Origin: Candidatus Heimdallarchaeota archaeon B3_Heim | GTDB taxonomy: Archaea; Asgardarchaeota; Heimdallarchaeia; Hodarchaeales; Hodarchaeaceae | Length of the DNA: 32,000 bases | NCBI GenBank assembly: GCA_003144275.1 | Contig: NJBF01000009.1 | Span: forward strand, 62,594-94,593 | Direction of reading: 5' to 3' | Shown: positions 10,600 to 32,000 of the stretch, one piece after another | Numbering within the stretch: position 1 is the stretch's first letter | Layout of the letters: every line of letters begins with the position of its first letter | Program-made: the position numbers and the translations under genes | Notes under the pieces: model-generated | The model's input: only the letters and a program-made list of their open reading frames with translations | Database searches by the model: none | Told to the model about the DNA's origin: nothing

Positions 10600-13500
10600 A
10601 TGACTTTAGTATCTAACGTTCATAAAGATGAAAGGGATCGAAAACAACCAGTGCTCACGCCCAATGCAATGACTGTATTAGAAAAAAGATATCTATTGCA
10701 AAATGACAGAGGGGAGATCATCGAAACGCCAGCTCAGCTCTTTACACGAGTAGCAAAAGCAATTGCAGCAAATGAATCACGCTATGGGCTTGATCCTGCT
10801 ATAATGGAAAAACAGTACTATGATATGATGGTGAATTTTGAGTTTTTACCGAATAGTCCTACTTTAATGAATGCAGGAACAAAAATCAACCAGTTATCGG
10901 CCTGCTTTGTTTTACCCATAGAAGATGATATGACTTCGATCTTTCAAGCGATAAAGAATGCGGCAGTGATTCACAAGTCAGGAGGAGGGACTGGGTTCTC
11001 ATTTTCACGATTGAGACCTACTAATGATAAGGTACAAACTACTGGAGGAGTAGCGTCAGGACCAATCTCTTTCATGACAGTATTTAACTCTGCTACTGAA
11101 ATTATAAAACAAGGGGGGTGTTTATCAGCTGAAAGCTATATTAGGACTAAAAATGGAGTAACAAAAATTGGAAATCTACTGGATTGTCCGCCCATGGGAG
11201 AAAATTTTCCCAATGAGCTTGTTTTTGATGGAGATGCATATAATAACGCGTTAGTTTCAATAGATAATGGTTTAGCAGAAGTCCTCAAGCTTAAAACAGA
11301 ACTTGGCATAGAAATTGATGTAACACTAAATCATCAGGTTGCTTGCATCAATCAAAATGGAGGAAGAGTCTGGAAAAGCGCCAAGGATGTAAAGGAGGGT
11401 GACTGGGTAGTTTTAGTACTAGGAGGGCACAGTGGGAAAGATGTTCTACTTCCAAGGCTGAAAGAACAACACTTCAATGCATCACCCATTAAGATACCAC
11501 AAAAAATGACTCCTGAACTTGGGGAGATTTTAGGCCTATATATGGCAGATGGTTGTATGAGTACAGGGGGAAGAATAATTTTCAGTGTCGATAACAAAGA
11601 TACAGACCTCATACGAAAAATTGAAGATTTAATGAAGACTAGTTTTAGTTTAAAGATAGGAAGAAAAGAAGATAATGATTCTTGGAGCGATTTAGTGTTC
11701 TATTCTCATGACTTATGCAGATTCTTTGAGAAAATGAATTGGAGAAAGGAATCATCATCGAAGGCTTTTATTCCACATGAGATTTTTTTGTCCTCATCAG
11801 AAGTAGCAAAAGCGTTTATACGGGGTCTTTTTGAGGGAGATGGAAATGTTCATTCAGACGGTTATCCAAGATACTATTCAACATCAAAGAAACTAATAAA
11901 ACAATTACAACAACTGTTGCTTGGATTGAATATTGTTTCTAAATACAATAAACGAGAAAAAGGAAAAGATAGTTTTGGAAAAAAACCAATCTATACTTTA
12001 ATGATAAATTCTGATCGTAATATTCAAGTCTTTAAAAAGGAAATTAACTTCTTATCAAAGAGAAAAAAAGAGATGTTAGATACAAGATATCATGAAAAGG
12101 CTTTCGAACAGAATGATATAATACCAAACCAAGAAAGAAGATTGAAAAGTCTTTATACATACGTTGGGAGAGGATCAGGAAAGGGAAGAAAAAATAGAGG
12201 GGCAGATAGAAGATTTTATCGTGCAATTTATCATTATATATCCGATAACCCGTCTTCTAGAAGAAACCTGACAAGAAAAAGACTTCTGAAGTTAAGAGAG
12301 AAATTTGATATCATTAACAATGATGAGCATTTTACTAGAATTTCGGATCCAAAATATTATTATGCCCAAATTAAAGAAAAACAATGGACTCAAGCCTATA
12401 CGATGGATATAGAAGTCCCTTCTTCAGGAAAGTTTGTTGCTAATGGTGTTTTAGTACACAATCGCCGGCGTGGAGCAAACATGGGAGTATTGCGTGTAGA
12501 TCATCCTGATATCCTAGAATTTATTGAATGCAAGCAAGATCTACAGAAATTAAATAATTTTAATATATCCGTGGGTTTAACAGAAGCATTTATGAAAGCA
12601 GTACTTTCTGATACCGATTATCCTTTGATAAATCCCAGAAATAATGAAATAGCTGAAAAGCTCAATGCCCGTACAGTCTTCGAGAAAATAGTCAATATGG
12701 CATATAAATCCGGCGAACCAGGAATACTCTTCTTAGATCAGATAAATGCAGCAAATCCCACTCCTCATATAGGAGAAATCGAGGCAACTAATCCATGTGT
12801 AGCTAAGGATTCATTAATATCAACAGAAAAAGGCATATTAAATATCTTAGAAGTTCCTAATGTTATTAAGACTGCTAGAAAAGGTCTATTTAACTTAGAG
12901 ACTAAAGAAGGATACTCCATTAAGCTCACTTCTGATCATAAAGTTTTAACTCCGAGTGGATGGAAAGAAGCTAAAGACTTACAGGTTGATGAGAAAATCT
13001 GCCTCCAAAGAAATAAAGGAGGATTTGGGTCAGAAGGCAATCAAAAAATAGGACATATTTTGGGGTGGTTTGTAGGAGATGGTTGGACAACTGGAAAGGA
13101 TGGTAGAGCGGTTCTAGCATTCTATGATAAAGATAAAGGAGAACTCTCTGAATATTATGCAAATATCGTTAACGAGGAGCTAAATGCTAATGTTTCTGTC
13201 ATCAAAATTCCTCAAAGAGAAGAAGTAAAATCTGTCAAGATCCTTAGACTGCTCGAGGAGTGGGAAGTCGAGAAAAAGAAGATATCTGCGAGGCTCCTTG
13301 AATCATCTGAGAGTTGTCAAAGAGGGTTTATACAGGCAATTTTTTCGGCTGACGGATCCTTTCAAGGTACTCTGGAAAAAGGTTATAGTGTCCGATTAGC
13401 TCAAAGTAATCTTCCATTACTCAAAAAAGTTCAGCTAATGCTCCTTAATTTCGGAATTGCTTCGAAACTGTATAAAAACCGAGGACCCAAGGGAAAATCT

Positions 13501-15273
13501 CTTTTACCTGATGGTAAAGGTCAGAAAAAGTACTATCCCATTAAGGCTCAACATAAATTAGTAATCTCAAAAGACAATCTTATTCGTTATAAGGATGAAA
13601 TTGGGTTTATTCTCCCTAATAAACAAACAAAAATGATTGATTCCCTAAAATCCTTAATTTCCAGAGGACCTTATAAAGAGAAATTCACAGCACGGGTCAA
13701 TAAATTAACCTACATTAAAGATGATGACGTTTACGATATCGTAGGAACTCCTCAGGGGGGATTTATTGCAAATGGAATTATAGTCCATAATTGTGGCGAG
13801 CAACCCTTATTACCTTATGAATCGTGTAATTTAGGCTCAATCAACCTAGGAAAAATGCTTAAAATCGATTCTAATGAAATTTTTGGTTTTAGTATTGATT
13901 ATGAGAAGCTAGAGCAGATTACTAGGTTATCGGTTAGATTTTTGGATAATGTTATTGATCTCTCTACTTTTCCTTTACCTGAAATTGAAGAAATGACAAA
14001 GGCAAATCGCAAAATTGGCCTCGGAATCATGGGATTTGCAGACCTTTTAATTAAGTTAGGAATACCTTACGATTCAACTGAAGGCACCAACCTTTCTGAG
14101 AAGGTGATGAATTTTGTTCATGATATTGCCCTTCAAGCCTCTCAGGATTTAGCTCATGAACGAGGATCCTTTCCAAATTTTTCTGGAAGTACATTAGCAA
14201 AGAACTATCCTATGATGAGAAATGCTACCTTAACTACTTTGGCACCCACAGGGACTATCTCAATTATTGCTGGTTGTTCCAGTGGGATTGAACCCTTATT
14301 TATGTTAACCTATGAAAGACGAGTCCTTGATGACGATATTCTTGTAGAAGGTTATCCTTTCTTTGTGGAAACCGCAAAGCGATTGAACTTTTATTCTCAG
14401 TCTCTGATGGAACAAGTTGCCGATACAGGTTCTATTGCCGATATTGACGAGATTCCTGAAGAAATCAAGAGGGTATTTGTAACAGCACATGATATAACAC
14501 CCGAGGCACATGTCAGGATGCAGGCAGCCTTTCAAAGTGCTGGGGTGGATAATGCAGTCTCAAAAACAACAAATTTCCCAAATGATGCATCCTCAGAAGA
14601 CATACAGAAAGCGTATTTGCTTGCGTATGAATTGGGATGTAAGGGGATTACAGTATACCGTTCTGGCTCACGAACTTATGACGTTTTGTCCAAAAAGGGA
14701 ACAAATGAGCAAACTACCGAAACAATCAAATCTTTTGAGACCAAGAAACCACGTCAAAGACCTAGTATTACCCAGGGGATTACCGAGCGTGTACGTGTCG
14801 GATGTGGTACAAATTTATTTATTACTATCAATGAGGATGAAGAGGGTTTAACAGAGCTTTTTCTATCTTTAGGAAAGTCAGGAGGATGTGTGGCTTCTCA
14901 TATTGAGGCAATGGGAAGGCTAATTTCCTTAACTTTACGGAGTAGGATTGAGCCTGAAGAGATAATTCTCCAATTGAAGGCAATCAGGTGCCCCTCCCCA
15001 ACTTTTGGCCCCGACGGTCCAGTGCTCTCCTGTGCAGATGCAGTAGCCAAGTCGGTCGAACGGTTTATTGAACTGCATAGTCAAAATGGAAATGGAAAAA
15101 ATGTATCGAGTAGCGAAACATCCAGTAACGAGGAGCACTACGAGCCAGAAACATTATATTTGAGTCATACTACCTCTGGATTGCGACCAGAATGTCCCGA
15201 ATGTGGTAATATTGTAGAACATAGTGAGGGGTGCATTCTTTGTAGAGTTTGTGGATATTCAAAGTGTGGTTAA
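10600..15273 (+). CDS. nrdJ: Class II (B12-dependent) ribonucleotide reductase precursor with two inteins; 777 aa after removing both
   Basis: PNSPTLMNAG, QLSACFV, KSGGGTG, NP/CGEQPL, ESCNLGS, APTGTIS and KGITVYR, with C-terminal TSCPD-like and Zn-ribbon domains. No ATP cone seen. Confidence 0.95.
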   Translation: MTLVSNVHKDERDRKQPVLTPNAMTVLEKRYLLQNDRGEIIETPAQLFTRVAKAIAANESRYGLDPAIMEKQYYDMMVNFEFLPNSPTLMNAGTKINQLSACFVLPIEDDMTSIFQAIKNAAVIHKSGGGTGFSFSRLRPTNDKVQTTGGVASGPISFMTVFNSATEIIKQGGCLSAESYIRTKNGVTKIGNLLDCPPMGENFPNELVFDGDAYNNALVSIDNGLAEVLKLKTELGIEIDVTLNHQVACINQNGGRVWKSAKDVKEGDWVVLVLGGHSGKDVLLPRLKEQHFNASPIKIPQKMTPELGEILGLYMADGCMSTGGRIIFSVDNKDTDLIRKIEDLMKTSFSLKIGRKEDNDSWSDLVFYSHDLCRFFEKMNWRKESSSKAFIPHEIFLSSSEVAKAFIRGLFEGDGNVHSDGYPRYYSTSKKLIKQLQQLLLGLNIVSKYNKREKGKDSFGKKPIYTLMINSDRNIQVFKKEINFLSKRKKEMLDTRYHEKAFEQNDIIPNQERRLKSLYTYVGRGSGKGRKNRGADRRFYRAIYHYISDNPSSRRNLTRKRLLKLREKFDIINNDEHFTRISDPKYYYAQIKEKQWTQAYTMDIEVPSSGKFVANGVLVHNRRRGANMGVLRVDHPDILEFIECKQDLQKLNNFNISVGLTEAFMKAVLSDTDYPLINPRNNEIAEKLNARTVFEKIVNMAYKSGEPGILFLDQINAANPTPHIGEIEATNPCVAKDSLISTEKGILNILEVPNVIKTARKGLFNLETKEGYSIKLTSDHKVLTPSGWKEAKDLQVDEKICLQRNKGGFGSEGNQKIGHILGWFVGDGWTTGKDGRAVLAFYDKDKGELSEYYANIVNEELNANVSVIKIPQREEVKSVKILRLLEEWEVEKKKISARLLESSESCQRGFIQAIFSADGSFQGTLEKGYSVRLAQSNLPLLKKVQLMLLNFGIASKLYKNRGPKGKSLLPDGKGQKKYYPIKAQHKLVISKDNLIRYKDEIGFILPNKQTKMIDSLKSLISRGPYKEKFTARVNKLTYIKDDDVYDIVGTPQGGFIANGIIVHNCGEQPLLPYESCNLGSINLGKMLKIDSNEIFGFSIDYEKLEQITRLSVRFLDNVIDLSTFPLPEIEEMTKANRKIGLGIMGFADLLIKLGIPYDSTEGTNLSEKVMNFVHDIALQASQDLAHERGSFPNFSGSTLAKNYPMMRNATLTTLAPTGTISIIAGCSSGIEPLFMLTYERRVLDDDILVEGYPFFVETAKRLNFYSQSLMEQVADTGSIADIDEIPEEIKRVFVTAHDITPEAHVRMQAAFQSAGVDNAVSKTTNFPNDASSEDIQKAYLLAYELGCKGITVYRSGSRTYDVLSKKGTNEQTTETIKSFETKKPRQRPSITQGITERVRVGCGTNLFITINEDEEGLTELFLSLGKSGGCVASHIEAMGRLISLTLRSRIEPEEIILQLKAIRCPSPTFGPDGPVLSCADAVAKSVERFIELHSQNGNGKNVSSSETSSNEEHYEPETLYLSHTTSGLRPECPECGNIVEHSEGCILCRVCGYSKCG
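11119..12462 (+). mobile_element. Intein 1 (448 aa) with LAGLIDADG homing endonuclease, inserted at KQGG/RRRGANM; +1 residue is Arg
   Basis: Begins CLSAES and ends GVLVHN; LGLYMADG and FIRGLFEGDG motifs. Removal restores IKQGGRRRGANMG. Confidence 0.92.
12796..13791 (+). mobile_element. Intein 2 (332 aa) with LAGLIDADG domain, inserted at the catalytic NP/CGEQ motif
   Basis: Begins CVAKDS and ends GIIVHN followed by Cys; LGWFVGDG and FIQAIFSADG motifs. Confidence 0.94.
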
Positions 15274-15300
15274 TGTAGTATATTCGTACCAAAAGGAGTT

Positions 15301-15481
15301 AACCACTGATCTGACTTTTACCATAAAATTACACTGGGTGACCATAAGCTTGTAGTGAGGGACGATAAATTACACAAGTGGTAGCTTTTTGTTCTCATAA
15401 GCTTGCATTGGGTAGCACGGAATGTTACCATATGTTTGCACTGATGGTAGCTTTTTATTCTCATAAGCTTGCATTGGGTAG
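15301..15481 (+). repeat. Left-end array: 36-bp terminal repeat plus six ~21-bp boxes
   Basis: Boxes start at 15320 (ACCATAAAATTACACTGGGTG), 15341 (ACCATAAGCTTGTAGTGAGGG), 15362 (degenerate), 15394, 15427 and 15460. A 36-bp unit GGTAGCTTTTT(G/A)TTCTCATAAGCTTGCATTGGGTAG is duplicated at 15380-15415 and 15446-15481. Confidence 0.93.
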
Positions 15482-15612
15482 ATCGTAAGTGAGGGTACAC
15501 TGAAGGAAGGGTACTCCTAGGAAAATATGTGACTCTGGAGATAGAGATAAATCATCTGGATTGTTTTCTTACTCATAATTATGAAATTTGCTGATTTTCA
15601 GATCAACATTAC

Positions 15613-15858
15613 ATGACTGGAATTTCACGCAATTACATTGAAGGAAAAGAAAAGTATAGGAAGATAGTCCTGAAAGATAAGAAAAAACATGAGCAAATAA
15701 AGGGAAAGAAAATTATATCATATTTGGAAATTATGATAAAAGAAGGAATTGGTATTACTATTATATCAATTCATAGACAAACAGGTATGTCATTAAGGTA
15801 TTTAAAAAAACAAGAAAACAAAATCTGGATTAAGAAAACGATTAATCAACTCTCATAA
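15613..15858 (+). CDS. Small basic HTH protein, DUF6262/Tn554 TnpC-like
   Basis: KIISYLEIMIKEGIGITIISIHRQTGMSLRYL...IKKTINQL resembles the I..AI..L...G..IT...VA..AGVS..LY pattern; first gene inside the left end. Confidence 0.5.
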   Translation: MTGISRNYIEGKEKYRKIVLKDKKKHEQIKGKKIISYLEIMIKEGIGITIISIHRQTGMSLRYLKKQENKIWIKKTINQLS

Positions 15859-15969
15859 TTTAGATTGTGTAAAGATTTAAAAATTCAATATATTTGAGAT
15901 GATGCGTAAGGGCGTAATCGATATTCTTGTAACGAGGACTAAGAGTGCAAAGGGATTGAGAGCAGAGCA

Positions 15970-16614
15970 ATGAATCCAAACCTTCCATTACATTCAAGAT
16001 CGTTGAAAATGAATTGGAAATGGGTACAAAACCTTGGAAATAACGCATGTTTTGCATCTTGTGTCCTTGTTTGTATACGATATTTAAATGCACAGTTAAA
16101 GAGGGAAGACCGTTTTAAAATAACACGAAAGATGAGAAGAGAATTACGTAGAACAAAAAATTTTCCTGTCTTGTCATCTGGAGTTAATGAAAGAAAAACT
16201 CTGCGAATTATGGAAGGTTTCTCAGATTTTCTTAAATTTGAAACTGATTCTCTTAAATCAGTAAAAGACTTACATATTTTAATGCTCCTAAAAACAATTA
16301 ATCCGATAATAGTTGTTTGGGATACCTCATATGGTCAAATAGGCTTAGAATCAACGAGTCATGCTAATATTGTTTATAATACAGATTTTGAAAGGGAAAT
16401 AATTTATTTGATTGACACAAGAAGTACATTTGATCCCCCGATCGTGCCTGTAATCATGGAAACTTTTACGAGAGGATGGCAAAGAACGGAAAACCTTACG
16501 TATATCTTATATAGCAAGGTGGATCCTCCCCTAAAAGTTGTGGATAAACGATTTGCAAAAAACTCTATACAAAATCTTCCTAATTTCTTTAAATCTGAAA
16601 ATATTAAAAAGTGA
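15970..16614 (+). CDS. C39-like papain-fold cysteine peptidase, stand-alone
   Basis: Ordered Q-C-H-D residues: WVQNLGNNACFASC, SHANIVY and IYLIDT. Confidence 0.72.
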   Translation: MNPNLPLHSRSLKMNWKWVQNLGNNACFASCVLVCIRYLNAQLKREDRFKITRKMRRELRRTKNFPVLSSGVNERKTLRIMEGFSDFLKFETDSLKSVKDLHILMLLKTINPIIVVWDTSYGQIGLESTSHANIVYNTDFEREIIYLIDTRSTFDPPIVPVIMETFTRGWQRTENLTYILYSKVDPPLKVVDKRFAKNSIQNLPNFFKSENIKK

Positions 16615-16632
16615 ATAGGTTGTTGATATATA

Positions 16633-17691
16633 ATGAGTAGAATGGAACATCATAATCCTACCAACAAGAAACTTTTAGAAATAAAGGAAATTAAACTAAC
16701 TTTTTTGGATTATGGGGTACAGGTTAATAGAGGTATTAAAAGAGATATTACCAGACACATTGCGAAGTATTATGGGCATAATATCCGTGCAAGAGAGCGT
16801 ATTTATGATTCTCAGTATAATAGATATGCAGTTCCTTTAGATGCAATTCTATTAAATGAAGTTAGAGCATATTCGGGGAAAACAAAATTCTTTCAAATTT
16901 CCTTGAAAAACGTTGGTTCTATTATTATCACGGATGAAGAAAAAATAGATAGATCTGCAACGACTTCGCCTGCTAACCTAAATTCTGCAATAAAACAGAA
17001 ATTTTGGGCTTTTAGAGAAGATCTTTCATCATTTATTCTAAAAGAAAAGCAAGATATTTGGGGAAAAATCCCTAGAATTGCTACTTTCATGAATCCTCTT
17101 TTTGTCGCAATCAATCGGCTTGTAAACTATCAAGAAGTTCCTGTTTCATTCTGGAAACAATTGGAAGAAGAAAAAGAAACAAAACATTGGAAATACATAC
17201 AATTGCTAAGCCAGTTATCAAAATCCTATGTCGTTATTAAAGACGGAAAAACGTTCATAGGGGAGGAGTTAGAGCGTTTAATCGAGAAATATCAAGATTC
17301 TTCAAAAGTGTCTGAAGTAGTGGCAGGAATAATATATGCAGAGAGATTACAAGATTTAGTTCATGATTTCCAATTGCGAAGTATAGCTAATTACGTTTAT
17401 TTACCAAGAACTTATTATTCAGATGCCTTAGACTATGGTGAAAACATTCGAGTACCTGAAAAACATCTTTTACGAAAACACTTTCTCAATAATTCTAGAG
17501 GAACTTATCAGGAGAAACATATGATTTATTTAGAAAATACGTTATCAGAATTGGTAAATCGAAAATGCCTAGAGAAAGAAGAGAAAAACAAGAAAAAAGT
17601 GGTTTTTGGAGAAGAAGATCTTTGGCAGCGACTATACAATCATAGAGAACAAGTTCTCGGACAGGTAGAGGTGGCGGAGGTAATTTCTTGA
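16633..17691 (+). CDS. Hypothetical protein (352 aa), possible C-terminal winged helix
   Basis: Long ORF 18 nt after the peptidase; no family recognised. Confidence 0.75.
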   Translation: MSRMEHHNPTNKKLLEIKEIKLTFLDYGVQVNRGIKRDITRHIAKYYGHNIRARERIYDSQYNRYAVPLDAILLNEVRAYSGKTKFFQISLKNVGSIIITDEEKIDRSATTSPANLNSAIKQKFWAFREDLSSFILKEKQDIWGKIPRIATFMNPLFVAINRLVNYQEVPVSFWKQLEEEKETKHWKYIQLLSQLSKSYVVIKDGKTFIGEELERLIEKYQDSSKVSEVVAGIIYAERLQDLVHDFQLRSIANYVYLPRTYYSDALDYGENIRVPEKHLLRKHFLNNSRGTYQEKHMIYLENTLSELVNRKCLEKEEKNKKKVVFGEEDLWQRLYNHREQVLGQVEVAEVIS

Positions 17692-18269
17692 AAAATCATA
17701 TCTTGGATGATGATATTTATTCTTGCTATAGCCTTACAAGAGATCTTAAAATTTCACCTGAAGATGAGGTAAAAGCTTTAGAAGACTTTTTGAAGTTTTT
17801 TAACTTAGATTATGATGTAGAAAACACAAAGCGTTTGGGAGAAATAATTAATGATTCTTTGTCCCTAATACATTCACCAGAATTTGAAGATGCTCTTGAA
17901 GAACTTAGCCAAATATCATCAGAGATAGTATATATTGGGAGCTCAATTCCTTTAGATTTAGCTACGGCAAAAGAGTTAGTTGCCGTAATTCTTGCCGTTG
18001 CTGATGCTGTTGGAAAAATAGGTATAGCTAGCTGGGGTATTAAAAAATTTGGAGATTTATTTGCAAAGGATATTTATGAGAAGGTAAAAGAAAAATTCCT
18101 TGGAGGGAAGAACAATAATCAATTGGAAGAGAAGAAGGTCTTACGTCTCTATCAAGAAGCTGAAAGAGTTGTTAGGACTGAAGAAGGAAAAGAGTTAGTC
18201 GAGAAGATTTCTTTTCTTTATGAATTAACTCGACCTGAATCTACTTCAGATGATACAAAGAAGCGATAA
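17688..18269 (+). CDS. Hypothetical protein (193 aa) with acidic N-terminus and central hydrophobic/amphipathic helix
   Basis: TTG start overlaps the upstream TGA (TTGA coupling); segment LVAVILAVADAVGKIGIASWGIKKFG. Confidence 0.7.
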   Translation: MKNHILDDDIYSCYSLTRDLKISPEDEVKALEDFLKFFNLDYDVENTKRLGEIINDSLSLIHSPEFEDALEELSQISSEIVYIGSSIPLDLATAKELVAVILAVADAVGKIGIASWGIKKFGDLFAKDIYEKVKEKFLGGKNNNQLEEKKVLRLYQEAERVVRTEEGKELVEKISFLYELTRPESTSDDTKKR

Positions 18270-20966
18270 ACACGCAATTTTGAATGATAACTTTGTCTAA
18301 AAATAACAATTTTAATTATAGAAAATCAAAAGAAATGATCTTATACAATATTATATTGGGGTTTATCCATGGAGAATAGTTTATTTAATATTGGTAAAAT
18401 ATTTGATGCTTGCGATGATGAGCCAACCACCGCACAAATCGATGTTGCAAAAGAATGGGCAAAATTAGTTACTGATAAGAAACTAGAGGATGAAGTGAAG
18501 AACTATTTCAAGTTTGGAAACAAAATTCTCCTCAAACTTCTAGGCTATGATGAAGACGACATTGGATTTGAGGAGAGTGCTGGTAGAAAAAGAGTTGAAT
18601 TTTCTATTAAAGACAATACAAATAAGTTGAAACTTGTAATTGAGTTAAAAGGTCAAAATGTAGATTTGGATAAACCACAGAAACGTGGTAAGAAATTTGA
18701 AAGGTCTCCAGTTGACCAAGCTTTTACTTATGCGATCGAAAATAAAGGTGTACAATGGATTATAGTTAGTAACTACAAAGAAACTAGGTTGTACAATTAC
18801 TATCATAAGAAACGGTTTATTTCTTTCACAGCTGATGATCTGTTAGTAATATCCAACTTGAAGATTTTTCTTTGTCTTCTTTCCAAAACAAATTTCTTGA
18901 TCAATAAATTACCCGATAAAATTCTGAATGATACTCTATTAGTAGATAAGCAATTCACTAAGGATTTTTATAAACTATACCATGCTACAAGATTAGAAAT
19001 AGCACGACAAATCCAGACCGGTAATCCAAGTTTCTCAATTAAGAAAATTGTGTCTTTAACGCAACTAATCCTAAATAGAATTATTTTTATTGCATTTACA
19101 GAGGATAGAAATCTTCTTCCATCTGAAACTTTGATAGAAACAATCTTACCTCCTATAAAAAGTAGAGATGTTTCTAAAACACGTCAAGAAATATGGAGAA
19201 AGTTGAACCTATTATTCGATGATATTAACAACGGAAAAGAAGACAAGGATATATCGCAGTACAATGGAGCAGTTTTTAAAGAGGATCTCAGCTTTTTGAA
19301 AATAGTCGATCTTTTCTCCCATTCAGAAAAGAAGAATATCGCTTATAATCACGGTTTTGATTATTCTGAGATTGAAAAACTGATTGGTGAATATAAATCT
19401 CTGAACCCTATATACAAGAATTTTCTATTGATTAGTCAAACTAATTTCAAGGATGAGAGATCAATAGATATTCTGGGGCATGTTTTTGAGCAGTCGATAT
19501 TGGATATTGAAAGAATTGCCGATATCGGCCTAGATAAGATTATCGAGGAAACCTTAAGCAGATCGAAAAAGAAAGGAAAGAGTAAAAAACGAAAAAGTGA
19601 GGGTATCTTCTATACACCAGAGATGGTAACTCTTGAAATAACGAAAACTGCACTTATCCGCTATTTATCAGATGATGATAAAATCACAACCATAGAAGGA
19701 TTGATAAATGAATTTGAAGGAAATATTACCTCTCTCGAAGACAAACTTACTAACATCAAAATTACTGACATTGCCTGCGGATCTGGAGCCTTTCTAAGCC
19801 AATTGACCAATCTTATTCTTGAATTATTCGAAAAAATACATCAATTGAAAATTGACCAAGGATTTTTTGTTGACGATCCTCTAAAAGAATTTTTTGATCC
19901 CTCACTAAAAAAGATGGAAATTGTTACAAATAATATTTTTGGTGCTGATATCAGCTCACAAGCAATTGAGATTGCTAAACTCTCCCTATTCCTTAAAATT
20001 GCACATAAAAAAGACAAGCTTCCTGATTTAGATTCTAATTTTACTGTTGGAAACAGTGTTATATCGGATAGCTCTGTTGTAACTGATGCAATTGATTGGG
20101 AAAACCTTACTCCCAATAAATTCCATATAATCGTTATTAATCCACCTTACATTCCGACTGAAATGCTACCAGAAGGAGATCGCTCCTATTTTTCTGGTAA
20201 TTTTGCGGTTTCAGGAAAATATGACACTTCTGTTATTTTTTTACAAAAAGCTTTAGGATTGTTGGAAGATGGAGGGGTTTTGGGAGCAATTGTACCCTTA
20301 ACATGGCAAACTGGAGTGAATTACAGATTATTTAGAGAAGAGATCTTCAAAATTTCGAAGATAATAACATTGATCAATCTTCCGTTTGATATTTTCCCAG
20401 ATGCATATGTTGATACAGGAATTGTAATATTAGAAAAGACCCCACCGTCACAAGATGATAGTTTCCGTGCTTATCAGTTTGATAAGCGAGCACGTGTTGC
20501 TACTCTGCACATTGACGAATGGGAAACGATTCCGTTCCAATATGTGCTAGAATATGAGGGTAAAAACGTATTTACTACAAAAGCTTTCTATACGTTTCAA
20601 AATAAGATTAAGCTCCTTTTTGAAGGGGGTAAGGCCAAGAAACTTGGAGACTTAACTGTATCAAGGCAGGGTTATTACGCTAGTAGACTTCAAACGAAGA
20701 AAACTCAACCTGATATTAATCACATCCCCTTCTATACAAAGGGCTTAGCCTTGCGTCATTTCGTAATCCCCCACTTAAGTGAATTTGTAGATATAAATGA
20801 ATGGGAAAGACTCAAACCATTTTATTGTACCCCAAAATTGTTCATTCGTAGAATAATTAATAGACAGGATAGATTAATGGCGTTCTATGTTGAACCAGAC
20901 CTATTAACAACAAAAGATTATAATCCATTTGTTCTAATAAAAGAGTCTGAGTGGTATAAAAGCTTG

Positions 20967-22385
20967 CTCGAATGATGAGTAAGTCACCATCGGGGAGTAA
21001 TGACGGAGCTGACCCACAAGCATTTAACTTCTGAACCAAATGTAATTCTATGTCACCAAAACAAGAAATACACCCGTTAGAAAACGAACTCCGTCACTAT
21101 CCTTCACGGACAGTCCAAGTTTTTAAAACTACCCATCTGACCCGTATTCTCAGGAAACACATTCACGAGACAGATGCCGACAAAAATCGGAAAGAATTTA
21201 GCTGTGAACAGTGGATTAAAAGTCTTTTCTTGATGCAGATTCATAAGTTCGAAGCGGTACGACCCTTTGTTCGTCAGCTCGAGCAAAACAAATCTTGGCA
21301 AGCGATTTGCGGTTATCAGGGAAACATTCCGACTCAAGGGCAGTACTCCCGAAGAATTCCTGATCAGCGCGTTCAGGAGGTGTTAGTACGGATGTTCCAG
21401 ACTTATCAACATTTAATTCCCTTGACACACAAGCAATTACCTACTACGCCCTCGAAGGCTCAATTTACCCTCCTTCAACAGGGGTATTATCCATTTCGGA
21501 TGGATTGTACCAGTTTAAAGTTATCTCCAGACCGTTATCCTTATGCTACCTGGGGGTACGTAGCCAGCAAAAAACAGCCTTTCCCTAGTGCGCGAATACA
21601 CACAGTTCAGGAAGGAATTCACGGATTCATTGCTAATTATGGACCATCGGGAGGCCATGAACATGAATCTCCCGTAGCTGAGGTACTATTGAATGAAACC
21701 GAAGAAATCAGTAGTTGGCTGTCTATTAATTCCATTGCAGATCAACCTCGACCATTTATAATATTTGATCGGGGATACTGGAAGTTAGCTCGTTTTCAGG
21801 ACTTAGATACTCGAGGATGGGGATGGAGCATTCCTTGGAAGAAACGAACTCTAATTGGAGTTCAAATAGAGATATTAAAATTTCCTCAAGCTGAGGATGA
21901 TCCCCTGGAAATTCTAGTCTGGGGATCAAACACTGAAAAACCGTGGCGTCGAATTATTGGTAAGCTAAATTCATCTAGCGATAGTTTCTGGGATGTATTT
22001 ACCAATGATTTGTCCCTTCCTCCCTTAACGGTGCTTCAACTCCAAAAGGAACGCTGGGAGATCGAAACTTTGTTTCAATGGATTAAACAACACACCACAA
22101 TTAAACGTCCGTTGGGGAAATCTTGGATGAGTTTTATCACCCATTGTCTGTTAGTGACCTTATTACAGATCATCCTCTTTTATTATCTCCTCCTTCTTGG
22201 ATTTACTCGTTGGCAAGACCATTTAACTTTATTACTAGAAAATTTACGTTATTCAGACTTAGAGCTTTGGCCTGATTGTTACTTGATAGCAGAAAGGTTG
22301 TAATTAATGTCAGGTGATAAAAATGTGATGATATAATCCATTAGACTTAAAAAGGCCAGTGAAGTGAAGTTACTCATCAATCGAG
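20967..22385 (+). mobile_element. IS4-family insertion sequence, 1419 bp
   Basis: 16-bp TIRs CTCGAATGATGAGTAA (20967-20982) and TTACTCATCAATCGAG (22370-22385) with one mismatch; perfect 9-bp TSD AAAAGCTTG at 20958-20966 and 22386-22394. Confidence 0.95.
21050..22303 (+). CDS. IS4-family DDE transposase
   Basis: N-terminal FSCEQWIKSLFLMQ (DUF4372-like), RMDCT, IFDRGY and ERWEIETLFQWIKQH motifs. Confidence 0.92.
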   Translation: MSPKQEIHPLENELRHYPSRTVQVFKTTHLTRILRKHIHETDADKNRKEFSCEQWIKSLFLMQIHKFEAVRPFVRQLEQNKSWQAICGYQGNIPTQGQYSRRIPDQRVQEVLVRMFQTYQHLIPLTHKQLPTTPSKAQFTLLQQGYYPFRMDCTSLKLSPDRYPYATWGYVASKKQPFPSARIHTVQEGIHGFIANYGPSGGHEHESPVAEVLLNETEEISSWLSINSIADQPRPFIIFDRGYWKLARFQDLDTRGWGWSIPWKKRTLIGVQIEILKFPQAEDDPLEILVWGSNTEKPWRRIIGKLNSSSDSFWDVFTNDLSLPPLTVLQLQKERWEIETLFQWIKQHTTIKRPLGKSWMSFITHCLLVTLLQIILFYYLLLLGFTRWQDHLTLLLENLRYSDLELWPDCYLIAERL

Positions 22386-23011
22386 AAAAGCTTGAGTTAC
22401 TATTACCTCTCGGCAATAATCAATTCAAAACTAATTTCCTTTATCTACATTAATACCTCTACAATTGCACAAAAAGATGATTTCCGACAAACCGATCTTA
22501 AAACTTTAAGAGATTTGCCAATTATTCTTCCTAATGAAACTGCTAAAGAATCGCTTGAAAAGCTAGCTGCTGAACTTGAGGAAAACTGGAAATCATTCCA
22601 TGTTGAGAAAATACGAGTGGGAGCTGTTCTGAAATCAAAATATAAAGTAAAAGTAGGGATAAGGATTGCGAATCTTCATAAATATACTAATGAAGAAGTT
22701 GCAGGAGATTTTCCCAAGCTATCGTTGAAAGAGACTGAAGAGCTTTTAGAATATCTAAATGAAAAAAGAGAATTAATATCTTCAATTAGTGAGACAATTA
22801 TTGATCTAGAGAACAAAATCGACAATCTAATTTATCAACTGTATGAATTAACTGAAGAAGAAACCCTGATTGTAGAAGATAGAATAAAATTAATTATTTA
22901 ACCATTTATTGTTTATACACTTCAATGAAACAGAAATAAATCATCCTTTAATTATATGTTAAAAAAACTACTTCGTGCAAGGACTTGGGAAGTAGGAGAG
23001 AGTAATTCAAC

Positions 23012-24157
23012 TTGAGAAAACCACAGAAAGCGACTCGTTCTATATTTTTTGCGAATCTAGGTAATGATCCAAAAAATCAATTGAGTAAAATTGCTAAAAT
23101 AGGAATCACAGATGTGGTTAGGAAATTCACTGATCTCAGTAAAATACCCGAAGGTAATTATCTCATTGTTATGAAGAGATGGAGTGGAAATTCATTTGAT
23201 GGAGTCCCGATTGCAAATGCCCGTTATCCATTAGGGGGCGGATACATTTTATTATGTGACCAGAATTGCATCGTGATTGATCCCGGAATAAACTTTTTTC
23301 AAGCTTTTCAGGAAATGGGGTTTAAACCTGCTGATATTGATGTGATTCTAATAACACATAATCACCTAGATCATCGTAAAGATTTAACTAGAATTTCCTC
23401 TGCATTTTTGAGATCATTTAATGCATCTAAAAAACACAAATCAATAATTCCTAAAAAAATCACATTATATCTAAATAATAATACACGAGTAACTTTATCA
23501 GCAGCTTTAGATCATATTAATGCGGAAATACTTGAACCTGTGAACGATTTTGCTAACTTGCGTGGGGATTTCATTAAATTTAAGCCAGTTGCTGTAGATC
23601 ATCCTCAAGAGGTAACCCATCCAGATTTTCAAAACGAACCTTCTTATGGCTTTATATTCAAGATTCAAGTACCTAAAGATTTGATTTTAGGTATAACAGG
23701 AGATACGAGATATTTTGAGGATTTAGAAGAAGAATTTAAATCTGTATCTGTATTAGCAACTCATATTGGGTCTATAGATCAATCAAACAATCATCTCAAA
23801 TTAGAGGGAGTACTCAAACTTGCAAACAGTCTGAAGCGATTAACACACCTTATAATGACTGAATATGATTACGACGAATTTCATTTAGAGAATAATCGGG
23901 TAAAAACAACGGATTTTATTAAATCAGAATTAAAGAAAAAATCTGTACGAGTGATCTCTGGAGATGTATCTTTAAGAATGAATTTGAATAACAGGAAAGT
24001 ATTCGTACCTTGCTCAATCTGTAATAAATCAATGTTAAACAACTTTTTATACTGTGTAAATAAATGTAAGAAACCAATTTGGTTTGACATCAAAAATATT
24101 GTAGAGAAAGAAGAAGTAGATGAATTTGGGCAAGGGATTCATTATTCTGTGAAATAG
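23012..24157 (+). CDS. Metallo-beta-lactamase-fold hydrolase with Cys-rich C-terminus
   Basis: GGGY..IVIDPG, THNHLDH (HxHxDH), VDH, ITGDT and THIG motifs; C-terminal CSIC...CVNKC. Confidence 0.85.
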   Translation: MRKPQKATRSIFFANLGNDPKNQLSKIAKIGITDVVRKFTDLSKIPEGNYLIVMKRWSGNSFDGVPIANARYPLGGGYILLCDQNCIVIDPGINFFQAFQEMGFKPADIDVILITHNHLDHRKDLTRISSAFLRSFNASKKHKSIIPKKITLYLNNNTRVTLSAALDHINAEILEPVNDFANLRGDFIKFKPVAVDHPQEVTHPDFQNEPSYGFIFKIQVPKDLILGITGDTRYFEDLEEEFKSVSVLATHIGSIDQSNNHLKLEGVLKLANSLKRLTHLIMTEYDYDEFHLENNRVKTTDFIKSELKKKSVRVISGDVSLRMNLNNRKVFVPCSICNKSMLNNFLYCVNKCKKPIWFDIKNIVEKEEVDEFGQGIHYSVK

Positions 24158-24180
24158 CTTACTTATTTAGAGAGATTGGA

Positions 24181-25332
24181 TTAAAGATTATCGTTGGAAT
24201 ATTGACACCGGATTATTGCTTCTTTATTGGCAAATCCGATAATACGGTTGTCATCACGTATAGGAATCTCATCTAAATTATTTTCTGCTAAGAAACTTGC
24301 TACCGTAAGCCATGTACCATCTTTCGGGAAAGGAACAATTTTTTCGGTTATATCTTCAACTATGGTTATAGGTGACTTACCTTGAAATCGTGCATAGATA
24401 ATATTATGAGTTTTTTCTGAAGGGATAATGCCATGATACTCCTTATCTCTAAAAACCATGAAGAGGTTAGAATAACTGATAATCTCATAAGGTTTTTCAG
24501 CCCAAATTTGTATTAAGTCTTTTTTCTCGACGCTTTCTATTAGTTCTAGTTCCTCTATTGATCTCGAGTATAGGGCATGTTTATTTACAAGAGCATCTTC
24601 GATCTCCCCAGATAGAATATTGAGAAATCTTGCTAATCCTTTCCCTTCTTTAGATAGTTCATATCTTGATTTTTTCCGTTTAACAAGAAATTTCTCACCA
24701 ATTAAATCCTTTAGATGGCCATCTATTAAACTAGATGTTGGAGTTTTTGACTGCGAAAGTTTATTTGGAACTAGATGAGTAAACACCTCAACCCCTCTTT
24801 CTATCTGTGAAAAATTAAATGGAGGGTTCTGGAAAAGAGTTAAAAGGATGAAAAATTTTATATCCACGGAACAGATTGAAATTATTGTTGATAGATACTC
24901 TTTGACATCTTCAATTGGCATCGATGACATTATTTTATTTGAGATTTGCTCATTTATGACTCTTTTTACCTGAATCACGGTATCATCAGGAGTAAAATAC
25001 TTAGTTATTTTATTATATGAAAATAATTTACTTTCAATCATTCTCTTCTTGTGATAACTATACGTGGATTTTCCTTTTCCTTCGTCGAAAAGCATTCTGA
25101 GATTAAAATTGTTTTCCTCAGATTCTAATTTTTTTGGATTTATAATGAAGTTCTTAATTGGTTTAATTTTCCTAATCTTTTTAAGAAAGTCAATGACTAG
25201 CCGGTAGGTCATCATTCTTTGAGTAAATTCTGGATTCTTTTGTTTCTCCTCCAAAAGTAAGATTGACTCATCATTCTCTACTAAAAGATTCTTTTCAATC
25301 ATTAAGTGTTCTGAATCTTTTTTGTTTTTCAT
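24181..25332 (-). CDS. Putative regulator with winged-helix domains and a C-terminal CBS-like pair
   Basis: KSTYSYHKKRMIESKL and SSLIDGHLKDLIGEKFLVKRKKSRYELSKEG (wHTH-like); NNLDEIPIRDDNRIIGFANKEAII (CBS-like). Confidence 0.65.
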   Translation of the reverse strand: MKNKKDSEHLMIEKNLLVENDESILLLEEKQKNPEFTQRMMTYRLVIDFLKKIRKIKPIKNFIINPKKLESEENNFNLRMLFDEGKGKSTYSYHKKRMIESKLFSYNKITKYFTPDDTVIQVKRVINEQISNKIMSSMPIEDVKEYLSTIISICSVDIKFFILLTLFQNPPFNFSQIERGVEVFTHLVPNKLSQSKTPTSSLIDGHLKDLIGEKFLVKRKKSRYELSKEGKGLARFLNILSGEIEDALVNKHALYSRSIEELELIESVEKKDLIQIWAEKPYEIISYSNLFMVFRDKEYHGIIPSEKTHNIIYARFQGKSPITIVEDITEKIVPFPKDGTWLTVASFLAENNLDEIPIRDDNRIIGFANKEAIIRCQYSNDNL

Positions 25333-25516
25333 TTTTACCTCACTTCTTCTGAGTACATATGTTACTTAGACCTTAATAAAGATTTCGAATATGACTAACT
25401 CAATTACAATAGAACTATGTTATCTCAATTTTATAGAATTACTAGGTCTAAAGAATCTTTTATCGCCTAAATTTCATTGTCCTTTTTTTCCAAGATTTCG
25501 ATGGTACACCTTCGAA

Positions 25517-25717
25517 GCTACCCAGTGCAAGCTTATGACAGCAAAAAGCTACCGGAATGCAAACAATTGGTCACCTAGTGCAAAGATATGATCCACTTTT
25601 TGAGTGACTTATTTATTCTCCTATACCCCTCAGTGCAATTTTATAGTAAAAGTCAGATCGGTGGTTGTGACTTTCACTTCGGAATTGCACTGAGTGACCA
25701 TAAGCTTGCACTGAAGT
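25517..25717. repeat. Right-end array: four inverted boxes, a 12-8-12 palindromic core and two outward boxes
   Basis: Minus-strand boxes at 25519-25539, 25551-25571, 25572-25592 and 25627-25647. Core GTAAAAGTCAGA-TCGGTGGT-TGTGACTTTCAC (25646-25677). Plus-strand boxes at 25676-25696 and 25697-25717. Confidence 0.92.
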
Positions 25718-25870
25718 ATACTTTCTAAGATGGGAAGGATGTCTATTCCCTCAATCTACCTAGCTTGATCAGTTCTTCTCGCAACTCTCTTATTCCGTCA
25801 TTAATTTGGTCAATCTGTAAATCTATAAATAATTAGTGACGTTATAATTCTAATAGGAGAAATCTTAATC

Positions 25871-26002
25871 TTGTATAAAAAGAGAAAAGATAAAGAGAAG
25901 AGTTTAGACTATTTGAAAAAAAATAAGAAGAAAAATGATCATGATCTACTTGTTGCTTACAGCACATCAAAGATGATTGATCCCCCTGGGCAAGGTGGAT
26001 AG
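25871..26002 (+). CDS. Possible 43-aa Lys-rich peptide ending IDPPGQGG
   Basis: TTG start with AGGAGA upstream; translated by hand and below the ORF-track cutoff. Confidence 0.3.
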   Translation: MYKKRKDKEKSLDYLKKNKKKNDHDLLVAYSTSKMIDPPGQGG

Positions 26003-26637
26003 TAATTTCTTCCATAAGCCTGTTAATTTTGAAATCGCACCAATCCAAGCTATTTGAATTTCATTTGTCATCATAATTATTGCCCCTGACTTTTAAATCA
26101 AGATTGTCAAGTAAAGTGAAGGTTTGATCCAAATATTTTTTCTCTAGCGACTCCCATGGCAATTCAAAGGTAGGAATTACAAAAAGTAACAGCTATTCTG
26201 AACCAATGGATCTATTCTATAAACTTTTTCTTAGATAGTGAATTTCATACCTTTTTTAGTTCATTTAACAATCATACCAAGACATAAATTGCGTTTGTTT
26301 GTCTTTAAAGATGAAAATCGCGTATCAAGGCGTTTTAGCTGATTCTAGTGTATTACTATGAATAAGTAAATTAATAGTATCTTTTCTTTTTTCTTTAATG
26401 ATTGAATGGTTCTTTGTATTCGTTGTTTCTTACACTCTTCTTGGTATTTTTTATTCTCTAAGATAAGCTTCCTATTCTTTTTATAGCCTCAAAAATAAAC
26501 ACTATAGACCGAAAATGATATAATTAGAAATAAATTATTAGTCATAGAAACGTTTAGCTTTATATAGTTATTACACCTTTTAATGACAAATATTTAACTG
26601 TTCTCGAAAGCATAAGAAAAAGAAGTCGATTAAAAAT

Positions 26638-26961
26638 ATGCCCGATATTGTAGTAACTTGGGGTTTAGACAGAGGGGAATTTTGGGATCATGATGTGACA
26701 GATGAAGAAATTGCTACTGAATGGGGGCCTTGGGAGTTAAAAACACGTCTACCTGAGCTTCATTTAATGAATAAAGTATATGTTTGTCATAATAAAGAAA
26801 TTAAAGGATATAATACAATAAAAAAAATATGGGTTGATGAGTATAGGACTCGAATGAAAATTTTCTGTAAAAGCTGGGTTAAAGTTGATCCTATCCCCAT
26901 AAGAAAATGTGGTCAGAGTTTTAAATACTTTGAAAAAATTAAGCGGTTAGGAGCAAAGTGA
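26638..26961 (+). CDS. Small PUA-superfamily (ASCH/EVE-like) protein
   Basis: KVYVCHNKEIKGY..I..I and C-terminal W..VDPIPIRKCGQSFKY resemble the ASCH-like P.P.kG.QGF.Y motif. Confidence 0.5.
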   Translation: MPDIVVTWGLDRGEFWDHDVTDEEIATEWGPWELKTRLPELHLMNKVYVCHNKEIKGYNTIKKIWVDEYRTRMKIFCKSWVKVDPIPIRKCGQSFKYFEKIKRLGAK

Positions 26962-26971
26962 GTTCCCATTT

Positions 26972-27307
26972 CTAACTTTTCGGATATTGTTGATTATAGG
27001 GTGGTTGATAATAATGAATCAATTGTGCCTCTGCTTGAGGTGTTTGATTCTCTGGTAAAATGTACCACGAAACGGTTCCAAATGGAATGTAATCATTCTC
27101 GTAATAATGGCTTCTTTCCCAATCCTTTAGTCGTCTTTGTAGATTGTTACTCATACCAATATACTGAAGAGTATCTCCCCAAAATAACGCATAGACACCA
27201 GATCTTTATGGAATTTCATCAAGATCTTTTTTTTCGAAATATTCCCCACAATCAATTATTTTAAGTCTTAAATTATCGAGCTTCTGTTTAATTCTTACCC
27301 TTGACAT
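26972..27307 (-). pseudogene. GIY-YIG nuclease with an in-frame TAA at codon 34
   Basis: From ATG 27307: ...DLDEIP*RSGVYALFWGDTLQYIGMSNNLQRRL...AEAQLIHYYQPPYN. Stop at 27206-27208. Confidence 0.8.
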
Positions 27308-27679
27308 GTTACAAACTCGCTCTTCAGGTTAATTATTGCTCCTCAATTCTTGGTTGTATACCCTTTTAGTGTGATAGTTTAAAGTATGGTTCATTCTTTC
27401 TTATTAATATATTTTATTTTCATTGAATCTTATTTACTCTGAAATGTCCTTAGACTTTAAATTACCTATTAGTTAACAGAGTAATCGTAACTTTCTCAAG
27501 AAAATGAAAAAATTTACATGTAAATCTGAATCATTTCCCGTATGAAAGATGAAAAAGTAATGAGGGATTTATGTTTAAGTTAGTGTTTCGATATCAAGAG
27601 GGAAATACTAACTCGATGATCTTTGTGAGCTTATTAAATCTTAATTCATTTCTTTAGTGTAGCAATCATTGGCTGTATC

Positions 27680-27692
27680 GAAAGATTTAATA
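27680..27692 (+). promoter_or_regulatory. Candidate BRE/TATA promoter for a leaderless tnpB transcript
   Basis: GAAAGA followed by TTTAATA, beginning about 24 nt upstream of GTG 27710. Confidence 0.4.
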
Positions 27693-27709
27693 CTATATCG
27701 TGGTAAAAA

Positions 27710-28945: not shown

Positions 28946-28954
28946 TTGATTCAA
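28894..28954 (+). ncRNA. 3' part of the putative omegaRNA scaffold / IS right end
   Basis: Perfect hairpin GGGTGTA-TGGT-TACACCC (28894-28911) and TCAA at 28951-28954, the usual IS605-type right-end tetranucleotide. The 5' boundary was not determined. Confidence 0.55.
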
Positions 28955-29155
28955 TCTCACAAAAGCGTCCAAAGATGCTATAACCCGTATTTAAATCTTT
29001 CGAACTGCTCCCTCCTCTGAAACTGTCGTCTTTTTGCTATCTTTTCTCTGTTAACCAGCTATTTCGTTCTTTGGTGATTCGAGAAGCTTTTTTCTTGATT
29101 TTTTTTCTCATTTTTGAATATTTAACCAATCCTAGTCAATCAATATTGAAGAGAA

Positions 29156-31909: not shown

Positions 31910-32000
31910 AGAACCCGTTAAGTTTTCCGGGATCGGGCTGCACACCGGCAAGGAGATCCACGTGCGCCTCAAGCCGGCCGCCCCGGATACGGGCGTGGTC
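31884..32000 (+). CDS. lpxC: UDP-3-O-acyl-GlcNAc deacetylase N-terminus (partial, bacterial)
   Basis: TTG start after AAAGGA; translates (M)KRNQGTIKEPVKFSGIGLHTGKEIHVRLKPAAPDTGVV. 31921-32000 is 55/80 GC. Confidence 0.82.
   Translation, partial: MKRNQGTIKEPVKFSGIGLHTGKEIHVRLKPAAPDTGVV

Follow-up and report, generated by a model that had tools for sequence, protein, structure and literature searches.

The DNA analysed here, referred to as the window, is a stretch of 32,000 nucleotides from Candidatus Heimdallarchaeota archaeon B3_Heim (Asgard, Hodarchaeales). It forms the final 32 kb of contig C8 in an archaeal metagenome-assembled genome (MAG; assembly label G000) of 3.9 Mb and 36% G+C, which encodes TFIIB and is 94% complete. 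In this window the gene of an nrdJ-type ribonucleotide reductase is followed by an element (15310–25657, or 15301–25666 including a repeated flank) bounded at both ends by arrays of ~21-bp boxes. We consider it probable that this element is a transposase-less and presumably immobile derivative of the Tn7 family, which lies at an attachment site at nrdJ and carries defence-type cargo. The features that define its borders are the following.

10600–15273, + strand: nrdJ-type ribonucleotide reductase of 1557 aa with inteins (Pfam Ribonuc_red_lgN/lgC, TSCPD, Intein_splicing and LAGLIDADG_3); presumed to serve, with its 3′ end, as the attachment (att) gene.
15274–15309, + strand: spacer of 36 nt from the nrdJ stop codon to the terminus of the element; its last 8–11 nt (15299–15302 to 15309) recur inverted at 25658–25666.
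15310–15490, + strand: nrdJ-proximal end, with the terminus TCTGAC and then six inward ~21-bp boxes; the analogue of the Tn7 right end.
25508–25657, − strand: nrdJ-distal end, with four boxes at a spacing of 55-21-32 and the terminus GTCAGA; the analogue of the Tn7 left end.
25658–25665, no strand assigned: 8-bp spacer TCGGTGGT, an inverted copy, with one mismatch, of ACCACTGA (15302–15309), which lies left of the proximal terminus.
25666–26190, + strand: remnant of an older proximal-type end, consisting of TGTGACTTTCAC, two rightward boxes and adjoining DNA; common to the related genome G020 and absent from the related genome G013.

The two ends are joined by inverted repeats. The first of these, for which the original prediction had given 36 bp and 33 matches, was recovered in the same place (15301–15336 and 25631–25666, 36 nt, 92% identity (33/36), BLAST score of 57 bits), and the second, claimed as 37 bp with 34 matches, was found as a repeat of 46 nt with 85% identity (15380–15425 and 25508–25553, 53 bits). 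When the same 13 kb were shuffled 30 times, the highest score was 36 bits. A third inverted pairing connects 15446–15481 with 25518–25553 (36 nt, 89%), and a direct repeat of 47 nt (79%) connects 15312–15358 with 25668–25714. Using a weight matrix trained on 27 boxes we located the starts of the left-array boxes on the + strand at 15317, 15338, 15391, 15424 and 15457, and that of a sixth, weaker box near 15359 (spacings of 21, 21, 32–33, 33 and 33), and those of the right-array boxes on the − strand at 25520, 25552, 25573 and 25628 (start-to-start spacing of 55-21-32 from the terminus inward). All ten boxes point inward, and their consensus is GTGACCATAAGCTTGCACTGGGT. Two extra boxes on the + strand (25673 and 25694) are situated directly outside the right repeat and point outward, which accounts for the 12 boxes counted originally, six on the left and four on the right among them. 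Several repeats of ~20–22 bp at each end, unequal in number and spacing and directed inward, are a feature of membership in the Tn7 family, and they are present here as six plus four boxes and in the sister element described below as seven plus four. In a weight-matrix scan of the whole assembly with a cut-off score of at least 16, ten of the 15 sites detected were at this locus, and neither the matrix nor a regular expression found a second box cluster anywhere else in the 3.9 Mb. The pattern is therefore not due to chance, and the boxes are not a regulatory motif scattered over the genome.

The strongest indication of what these arrays are came from a second element. Public contigs were scanned with one exact box pattern each, an inner-box pattern for genome contigs and a terminal pattern for metagenome contigs. 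The terminal pattern detected, apart from one chance match (L020), the metagenome contig SDBT01001747.1 from a related MAG, of which we analysed an extended stretch (L029). The gene order on this contig is the same as in the window, with polyprenyl synthase, nucleotidyl transferase, glycosyltransferase, Endo_dU and nrdJ followed by an array-bounded element of 3.1 kb (L029 8593–11701), which we refer to as the sister element. A seven-box array begins 31 nt past the nrdJ stop codon and is collinear with the nrdJ-proximal end of the window element (L029 8593–8785), and a four-box inverted array is found 2.9 kb beyond it, in the same orientation as in the window. The arrays of the two loci are 76–86% identical, the flanking housekeeping genes about 68%, and the cargo of the sister element is unrelated to that in the window. 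The sister element has the termini TGTGAC...GTCACA and is flanked by an exact 5-bp target duplication, TACTC (L029 8588–8592 and 11702–11706), a match for which we estimate a chance of ~0.001. Its first gene, counted inward from the nrdJ-proximal end, encodes a TnsA-like endonuclease domain (Pfam PF08722, E=7e-9). In an exhaustive HMMER search of 1.8 billion representatives the nearest relatives of this remnant were the N-termini of TnsA–TnsB fusions of 738–965 aa (50% identity, E=1e-50); a word-index protein search returned only the remnant itself, and a search for longer proteins returned nothing. As determined with tblastn, the sister tnsAB gene is frameshifted and everything past residue ~235, the TnsB part, has been lost. 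Because of the TGT/ACA termini, the TACTC duplication and the tnsAB remnant, the sister element is a decayed Tn7-family transposon and the arrays are its ends. The earlier proposal that arrays of Tn7-like sites delimit a transposase-less cargo element is supported.

The nearest TnsA–TnsB fusions are followed by TniB, and some of their contigs add tniQ-sized open reading frames without a Pfam match and cargo with TIR and NB-ARC domains. On three contigs of these relatives (L089, L090 and L092) boxes of the window type were not found. One of the contigs concerned (L089/L090; ENA ERZ26802894 NODE_440, 33.5 kb) has two tandem tnsAB–tniB modules with TIR and NB-ARC/TPR cargo between them, and these look like stacked Tn7-like elements.

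Comparison with related genomes gave a consistent picture of the insertion site. In the close relative G013 the sequence around window position 15300 is joined directly to that around 26190, the whole block being absent, and the downstream DNA is 97% identical to contig C38 of G000. The empty site that the original prediction had proposed to look for at the nrdJ 3′ locus was thus present. In G020 (about 84% identical), where the nrdJ region is syntenic with the window, as it is on the SDBT contig, there is no cargo; a terminus of the proximal type, with two boxes of which one is good and the other decayed, begins 43 nt past nrdJ and is followed by DNA matching window positions 25853–26017. Since the same remnant recurs in the window from 25666 onward, the window element was inserted between nrdJ and an older, eroded end, and the outer arm of its right junction is the terminus of this older end, which G020 has without the element. 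Stacked insertions at nrdJ are the pattern expected at a transposon attachment site. Altogether two elements and two remnants lie 31–43 nt past the nrdJ stop codon, always with the many-box end toward nrdJ, so that insertion at this gene is specific in site and orientation, and the site is empty in a 97%-identical relative. A single distal-type array was found on an 11.5-kb contig of a genome of the same genus (G004:C105), with the 55-21-32 spacing seen in the window and SDBT elements. The distal end of the window element is 76–79% identical over ~150 bp to these two arrays, and both flanks are unrelated between the loci. The sister element, the end in G004 and the older remnants all have the terminus TGTGAC.

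Scanning of 83 genomes of the class and 400 of the phylum revealed boxes only in G000, G004 and G020. Three further matches with 3 mismatches in the Asgard genomes were single boxes and hence were dismissed as chance. Among public genome contigs the inner-box pattern matched only G004 and two bacterial contigs, the latter by chance, and in the nrdJ flanks of 16 other genomes of the genus boxes of the window type were not found. Two observations had been named that would speak against a mobile origin, namely relatives that lack the cargo and retain both arrays, and boxes dispersed over the genome. Neither was made: the closest relative is without both arrays, and the boxes do not occur genome-wide.

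Tn7 inserts into attTn7 in a site- and orientation-specific manner, a few tens of base pairs past the glmS stop codon. Its right end adjoins the gene, with tnsA reading inward, and right-end transposase sites are more numerous and denser than those of the left end. Bacterial genomic islands with vestigial Tn7 ends are known, and successive insertions stack and decay at attTn7. The window and sister elements resemble Tn7 in being inserted beyond an essential gene's stop codon, in the denser sites of the gene-proximal end and in the stacking and decay of insertions, and the tnsA remnant of the sister element likewise reads inward from the gene-proximal end. They differ in having ~21-bp boxes with a consensus of their own, six or seven proximal and four distal instead of the four and three of Tn7, and the window copy also differs in lacking terminal TGT/ACA and a 5-bp duplication. 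By analogy with Tn7, a TnsB-type DDE transposase, fused to TnsA in this lineage, is predicted to bind the ~21-bp boxes. A selector of the TniQ/TnsD type, together with an ATPase of the TnsC/TniB type, would read the conserved nrdJ 3′ end, and insertion would be directed to a position 30–45 nt past the stop codon in a single orientation with a 5-bp duplication. The window copy would have lost all tns genes and kept its cargo, and would be mobile only if TnsAB, TnsC and TniQ were supplied in trans.

Tn7-family elements with fused tnsAB genes and mostly TGT ends have been described across archaea, including Asgard archaea; their attachment sites include tRNA genes and nrdD. One Heimdallarchaeal element was reconstituted in Escherichia coli, where it depended on TniQ and showed target immunity (Thesier, Hsieh, Schargel, Wingo & Peters, bioRxiv 10.1101/2025.07.27.667033). 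The suggestion that the window element might be of an undescribed kind is therefore not upheld; the element opens no new category of mobile element and adds another archaeal example to a known one. The Asgard host and the insertion beside a conserved housekeeping gene are shared with the published elements, as are the TGT ends and 5-bp duplication of the sister element and the fused tnsAB in the nearest relatives of its remnant. Unlike those elements, the window copy is devoid of tnsAB, tnsC and tniQ, and the neighbouring gene is a class II-type ribonucleotide reductase (Ribonuc_red_lgC + TSCPD) instead of nrdD; the paper mentions neither nrdJ nor the order Hodarchaeales. Our results extend the archaeal record of the family to Hodarchaeales and indicate a further attachment gene, the class II-type reductase, whose 3′ end gathers and erodes successive defence-carrying insertions in Asgard archaea like the attTn7 islands of bacteria. 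In the archaeal group closest to eukaryotes, they exemplify the stacking and erosion of Tn7-like islands. The published survey could not find copies without tns genes because it started from TniQ. Surveys seeded with TniQ or TnsB overlook transposase-less copies, which the end-array signature can retrieve, and the conserved ends together with an nrdJ target fragment could be used for a reconstitution like that of the Heimdallarchaeal element.

A likeness to Tn6677 put forward in the original prediction agrees with the right end of the Vibrio cholerae HE-45 element as printed (PMC6360697), which reads TGT, 7 nt and ACCATAAAAT. The first box of the sister element is in the same register, TGT + 7 nt + ACCATA(A/T)AAT, and in the window element the first box reads ACCATAAAAT at an equal offset if the terminus is set at 15310. 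The remainder of the box differs, and the CRISPR-Cas module of Tn6677 is absent here. The likeness extends over 10 nt of AT-rich sequence and may be due to chance.

Several observations weigh against a Tn7-family origin of the window element. Its termini, when aligned with those of the sister element, are TCTGAC...GTCAGA and not TGT...ACA, and the 5-bp flanks in this register differ (ACTGA and TCGGT). With the register moved two bases inward the termini read TGAC...GTCA, and in a TGA...TCA register, a form rare among Tn7-family termini, the two flanks share only the palindromic GATC. A direct target duplication was not found at the window element, as had been noted before. The flank repeat of 8–11 bp is inverted and not direct, an arrangement not expected from simple insertion of a Tn7 element. 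In the window element, domain searches and tblastn, for which the queries were nine Tns proteins of archaea and six relatives of TnsAB, revealed neither tns genes nor recognisable remnants of them. Autonomous, box-bearing copies were not found in the 400 Asgard genomes, the two public contig scans or the contigs of the nearest TnsAB relatives. In G020 (contig C227; L010 11910–12026) there is, in addition, a second, decayed nrdJ 3′ end ~315 bp downstream of the real one, comprising the last ~39 nt of nrdJ, the stop codon, the spacer and a TGTGAC terminus with boxes, and simple transposition does not explain this arrangement. A candidate for a second copy of the nrdJ 3′ flank near window position 26150 was no better than shuffled controls and was rejected.

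As for the source of the inverted flank, the terminal boxes at either end of the window copy are near-identical to one another (33/36), whereas those of the sister element clearly differ. We speculate that a break at the distal terminus may have been repaired on the template of the proximal end, with a few bases of flank copied along; alternatively, and as speculatively, the element might have been inserted into a short palindrome.

Domain searches and tblastn found no recombinase or transposase between the ends of the window copy except the copy of an unrelated IS4-family insertion sequence, as had been stated originally, and cognate TnsAB, TnsC and TniQ were not found in G000 or in the 400 Asgard genomes. 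Genes for TnsA and TnsB were not found in the G000 assembly, a negative result of little weight for TnsA as the family search also matched no control genome. Matches to rve in G000 were considered as tnsB candidates and rejected, since they belong to an IS3 copy and to two retroelement-like contigs. The core genes of the family (TnsB-type transposase, TnsC/TniB and TniQ/TnsD) are thus missing from the window element, and because of their absence we describe it as derived from the Tn7 family and not as an autonomous member. With no cognate tns set in the genome, altered termini and a missing duplication, an immobile fossil island is the most likely state of the window copy, and the earlier proposal of mobilisation or inversion in trans becomes the less likely one. 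Only two public sequencing runs contained about 9% of the sampled sequence words; their contigs cover chiefly the IS4-family copy and no junction of the element, and so do not bear on excision or inversion. A version of that proposal that we regard as unlikely is a still-active miniature Tn7-like family in Hodarchaeales, mobilised in trans by TnsAB, TnsC and an nrdJ-reading TniQ from an unsampled source. In such a family the inverted flank would be left over from a further reaction at the ends, in which either a break induced by the transposase was mended on the opposite end or a 12-8-12 core underwent site-specific inversion. Were this so, the family would represent a new archaeal attachment-site specificity and an end chemistry unusual for Tn7.

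The right junction, which consists of two 12-bp arms around the 8-bp spacer TCGGTGGT with 10/12 matched positions, can also be read in terms of a different type of reaction. A tyrosine or serine recombinase supplied in trans could act on this junction as a lox- or att-like core, with the boxes as arm-type sites and the 10.4 kb as an invertible or integrative cassette. The window element does resemble the Cre/lox and Xer/dif systems (IMEX-like elements) in being recombinase-less and in the 12-8-12 layout of one junction. The inverted copy of the spacer next to the one arm on the left and the missing target duplication would fit this explanation as well. The 47-nt direct repeat could pass as attL/attR, and the duplicated nrdJ 3′ end in G020 is of the kind made by integrases that target gene 3′ ends. 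However, the right outer arm is merely the terminus of the older end that G020 carries without the element, and at the left site the second arm is missing and the outer sequence is unrelated, so that two complete core sites are not present. Genes for integrases or invertases were not found in or near any of the three array loci (window, L029 and L009), which also removes the ground for the integrase arm-site alternative raised at the outset. There was no evidence of a host recombinase acting at the window element, and the 5-bp duplication, TGT/ACA termini and tnsAB remnant of the sister element are transposon hallmarks. Site-specific recombination is therefore quite unlikely to have shaped the locus.

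Explanations that leave mobility aside, or that place it in another kind of replicon, fare no better. The boxes might be operator or enhancer sites of a local transcription factor, for instance the 81-aa protein or the CBS protein of the cargo, neither of which has a known function. Both arrays are located 120–175 bp upstream of inward genes (15613 on the + strand and 25332 on the − strand) in the same relative orientation. Nevertheless, in G004 and on the SDBT contig the neighbours of the distal array are 3′ ends of converging genes and not promoters, and the sister element has kept both arrays without either candidate regulator. Arrays and cargo have been gained or lost together between near-conspecific genomes, and the sharp, conserved array termini and the target duplication of the sister element also make a purely regulatory role very unlikely. 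Tandem direct repeats of ~21 bp in helical register resemble iterons as well, or the centromere-like repeats of an integrated plasmid or virus. This origin is highly improbable, given that neither element contained detectable replication, partition or virion genes, that the inverted arrays lie exactly at the borders of variable DNA, and that the sister element is only 3.1 kb long.

Tn7 machinery detected elsewhere in the lineage is in keeping with a Tn7-family origin of the window element. A genome of the same genus (G012:C353; L073 4176–12610) has an apparently complete Tn7-like module with tnsA, tnsB (rve), tniB and genes of 511 and 508 aa, with three tandem 21–22-bp boxes (12546–12606) that end about 40 bp from a converging gene. 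These boxes look similar to those of the window but face the opposite way relative to the terminus, and we claim no relatedness. The same contig begins with a gene of 84-bp repeats resembling C2H2 zinc-finger units (L073 1–1443). A genome of the same class (G081:C138) encodes a tnsAB fusion (TnsA_N, helix-turn-helix, rve and Mu-transpos_C), tniB and tniQ. In the Tn7-like element of G007 repeats were not found at the settings used.

Between the two ends the window element carries the following cargo.

15613–15858, + strand: basic protein of 81 aa with a possible helix-turn-helix; weak match to DUF6262 (E=0.0013, under the curated cutoff).
15970–18269, + strand: three-gene operon encoding a C39-like cysteine peptidase (214 aa) and proteins of 352 and 193 aa.
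18369–22901, + strand: MmeI-like type IIG restriction-modification gene, interrupted by the IS4-family copy (Pfam Eco57I, N6_Mtase, MmeI_Mtase and TaqI_C; PADLOC REase_MTase_IIG, E=4e-54).
20967–22385, + strand: IS4-family insertion sequence (DDE_Tnp_1), not related to the box element, with terminal inverted repeats and a target duplication of 9 bp, AAAAGCTTG.
23012–24157, + strand: metallo-beta-lactamase-fold hydrolase (Pfam Lactamase_B_2, E=4e-15).
24181–25332, − strand: protein of 383 aa with a C-terminal CBS domain (weak match).

The MmeI-like gene confirms the defence cargo anticipated in the original prediction, and an open frame of 1034 aa is regained when 20967–22385 and one 9-bp repeat are removed from it. 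The 81-aa protein is possibly cargo or a regulator; its candidacy as a relative of the TnsB helix-turn-helix was dropped, a similarity of E about 1 having no evidential value. The 214-aa protein was related to the Peptidase_C39_2 family in the ESM Atlas (feature score 0.96, TM 0.64). The 352-aa and 193-aa proteins had no match in Pfam, NCBIfam or PADLOC and no detected relatives, and a word-index protein search with the 352-aa protein matched only itself. The 383-aa protein is possibly a helix-turn-helix–CBS regulator, for which Atlas clusters of HTH_11+CBS (score 0.80–0.86) provide a lead only. Rfam and tRNA scans of the window gave no match.

The assembly, which the IS4-family sequence breaks up, contains at least 10 copies of it, complete or partial, and many of these are at contig ends. 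The two retroelement-like contigs of G000, C40 (L035 3–3737) and C13 (L036 1–5157), encode Ty3/gypsy-type polyproteins (RVT_1, RNase H, Integrase_H2C2 and rve), one of them also with a SCAN domain, and look like eukaryotic contamination of the bin. The reductase next to the element measures 1557 aa in the window (10600–15273), 1109 aa in G020 (L010 12309–15638) and 1239 aa on the SDBT contig (L029 4842–8561), and since the lengths differ among such close relatives the intein content must differ too.

A second island follows the one described here. It comprises window positions 26386–32000 and G000:C38:1–7796 and is absent from the 97%-identical G013. The window part contains small open reading frames, a TnpB/IS605 OrfB-type gene (27710–28945) and a 917-aa helicase (29156–31909); about 7.8 kb more of the island are on C38, after which synteny resumes with a 303-aa gene and a tRNA-guanine transglycosylase. 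Some 28 bp of G013 (201–228) align to both borders of this island. Other tandem boxes of 20–22 bp with palindromic half-sites (TGACAAA...TGTCA) were observed 3′ of nrdJ in G012 (contig C313, first ~90 nt of L057) and in G004 (contig C100, L063, ~90–150 nt past nrdJ). In G012 they precede a lone gene of 546 aa placed ahead of a conserved block with the 300-aa gene and the transglycosylase (TGT). These boxes may be the ends of another lineage at the same site, or an operator.

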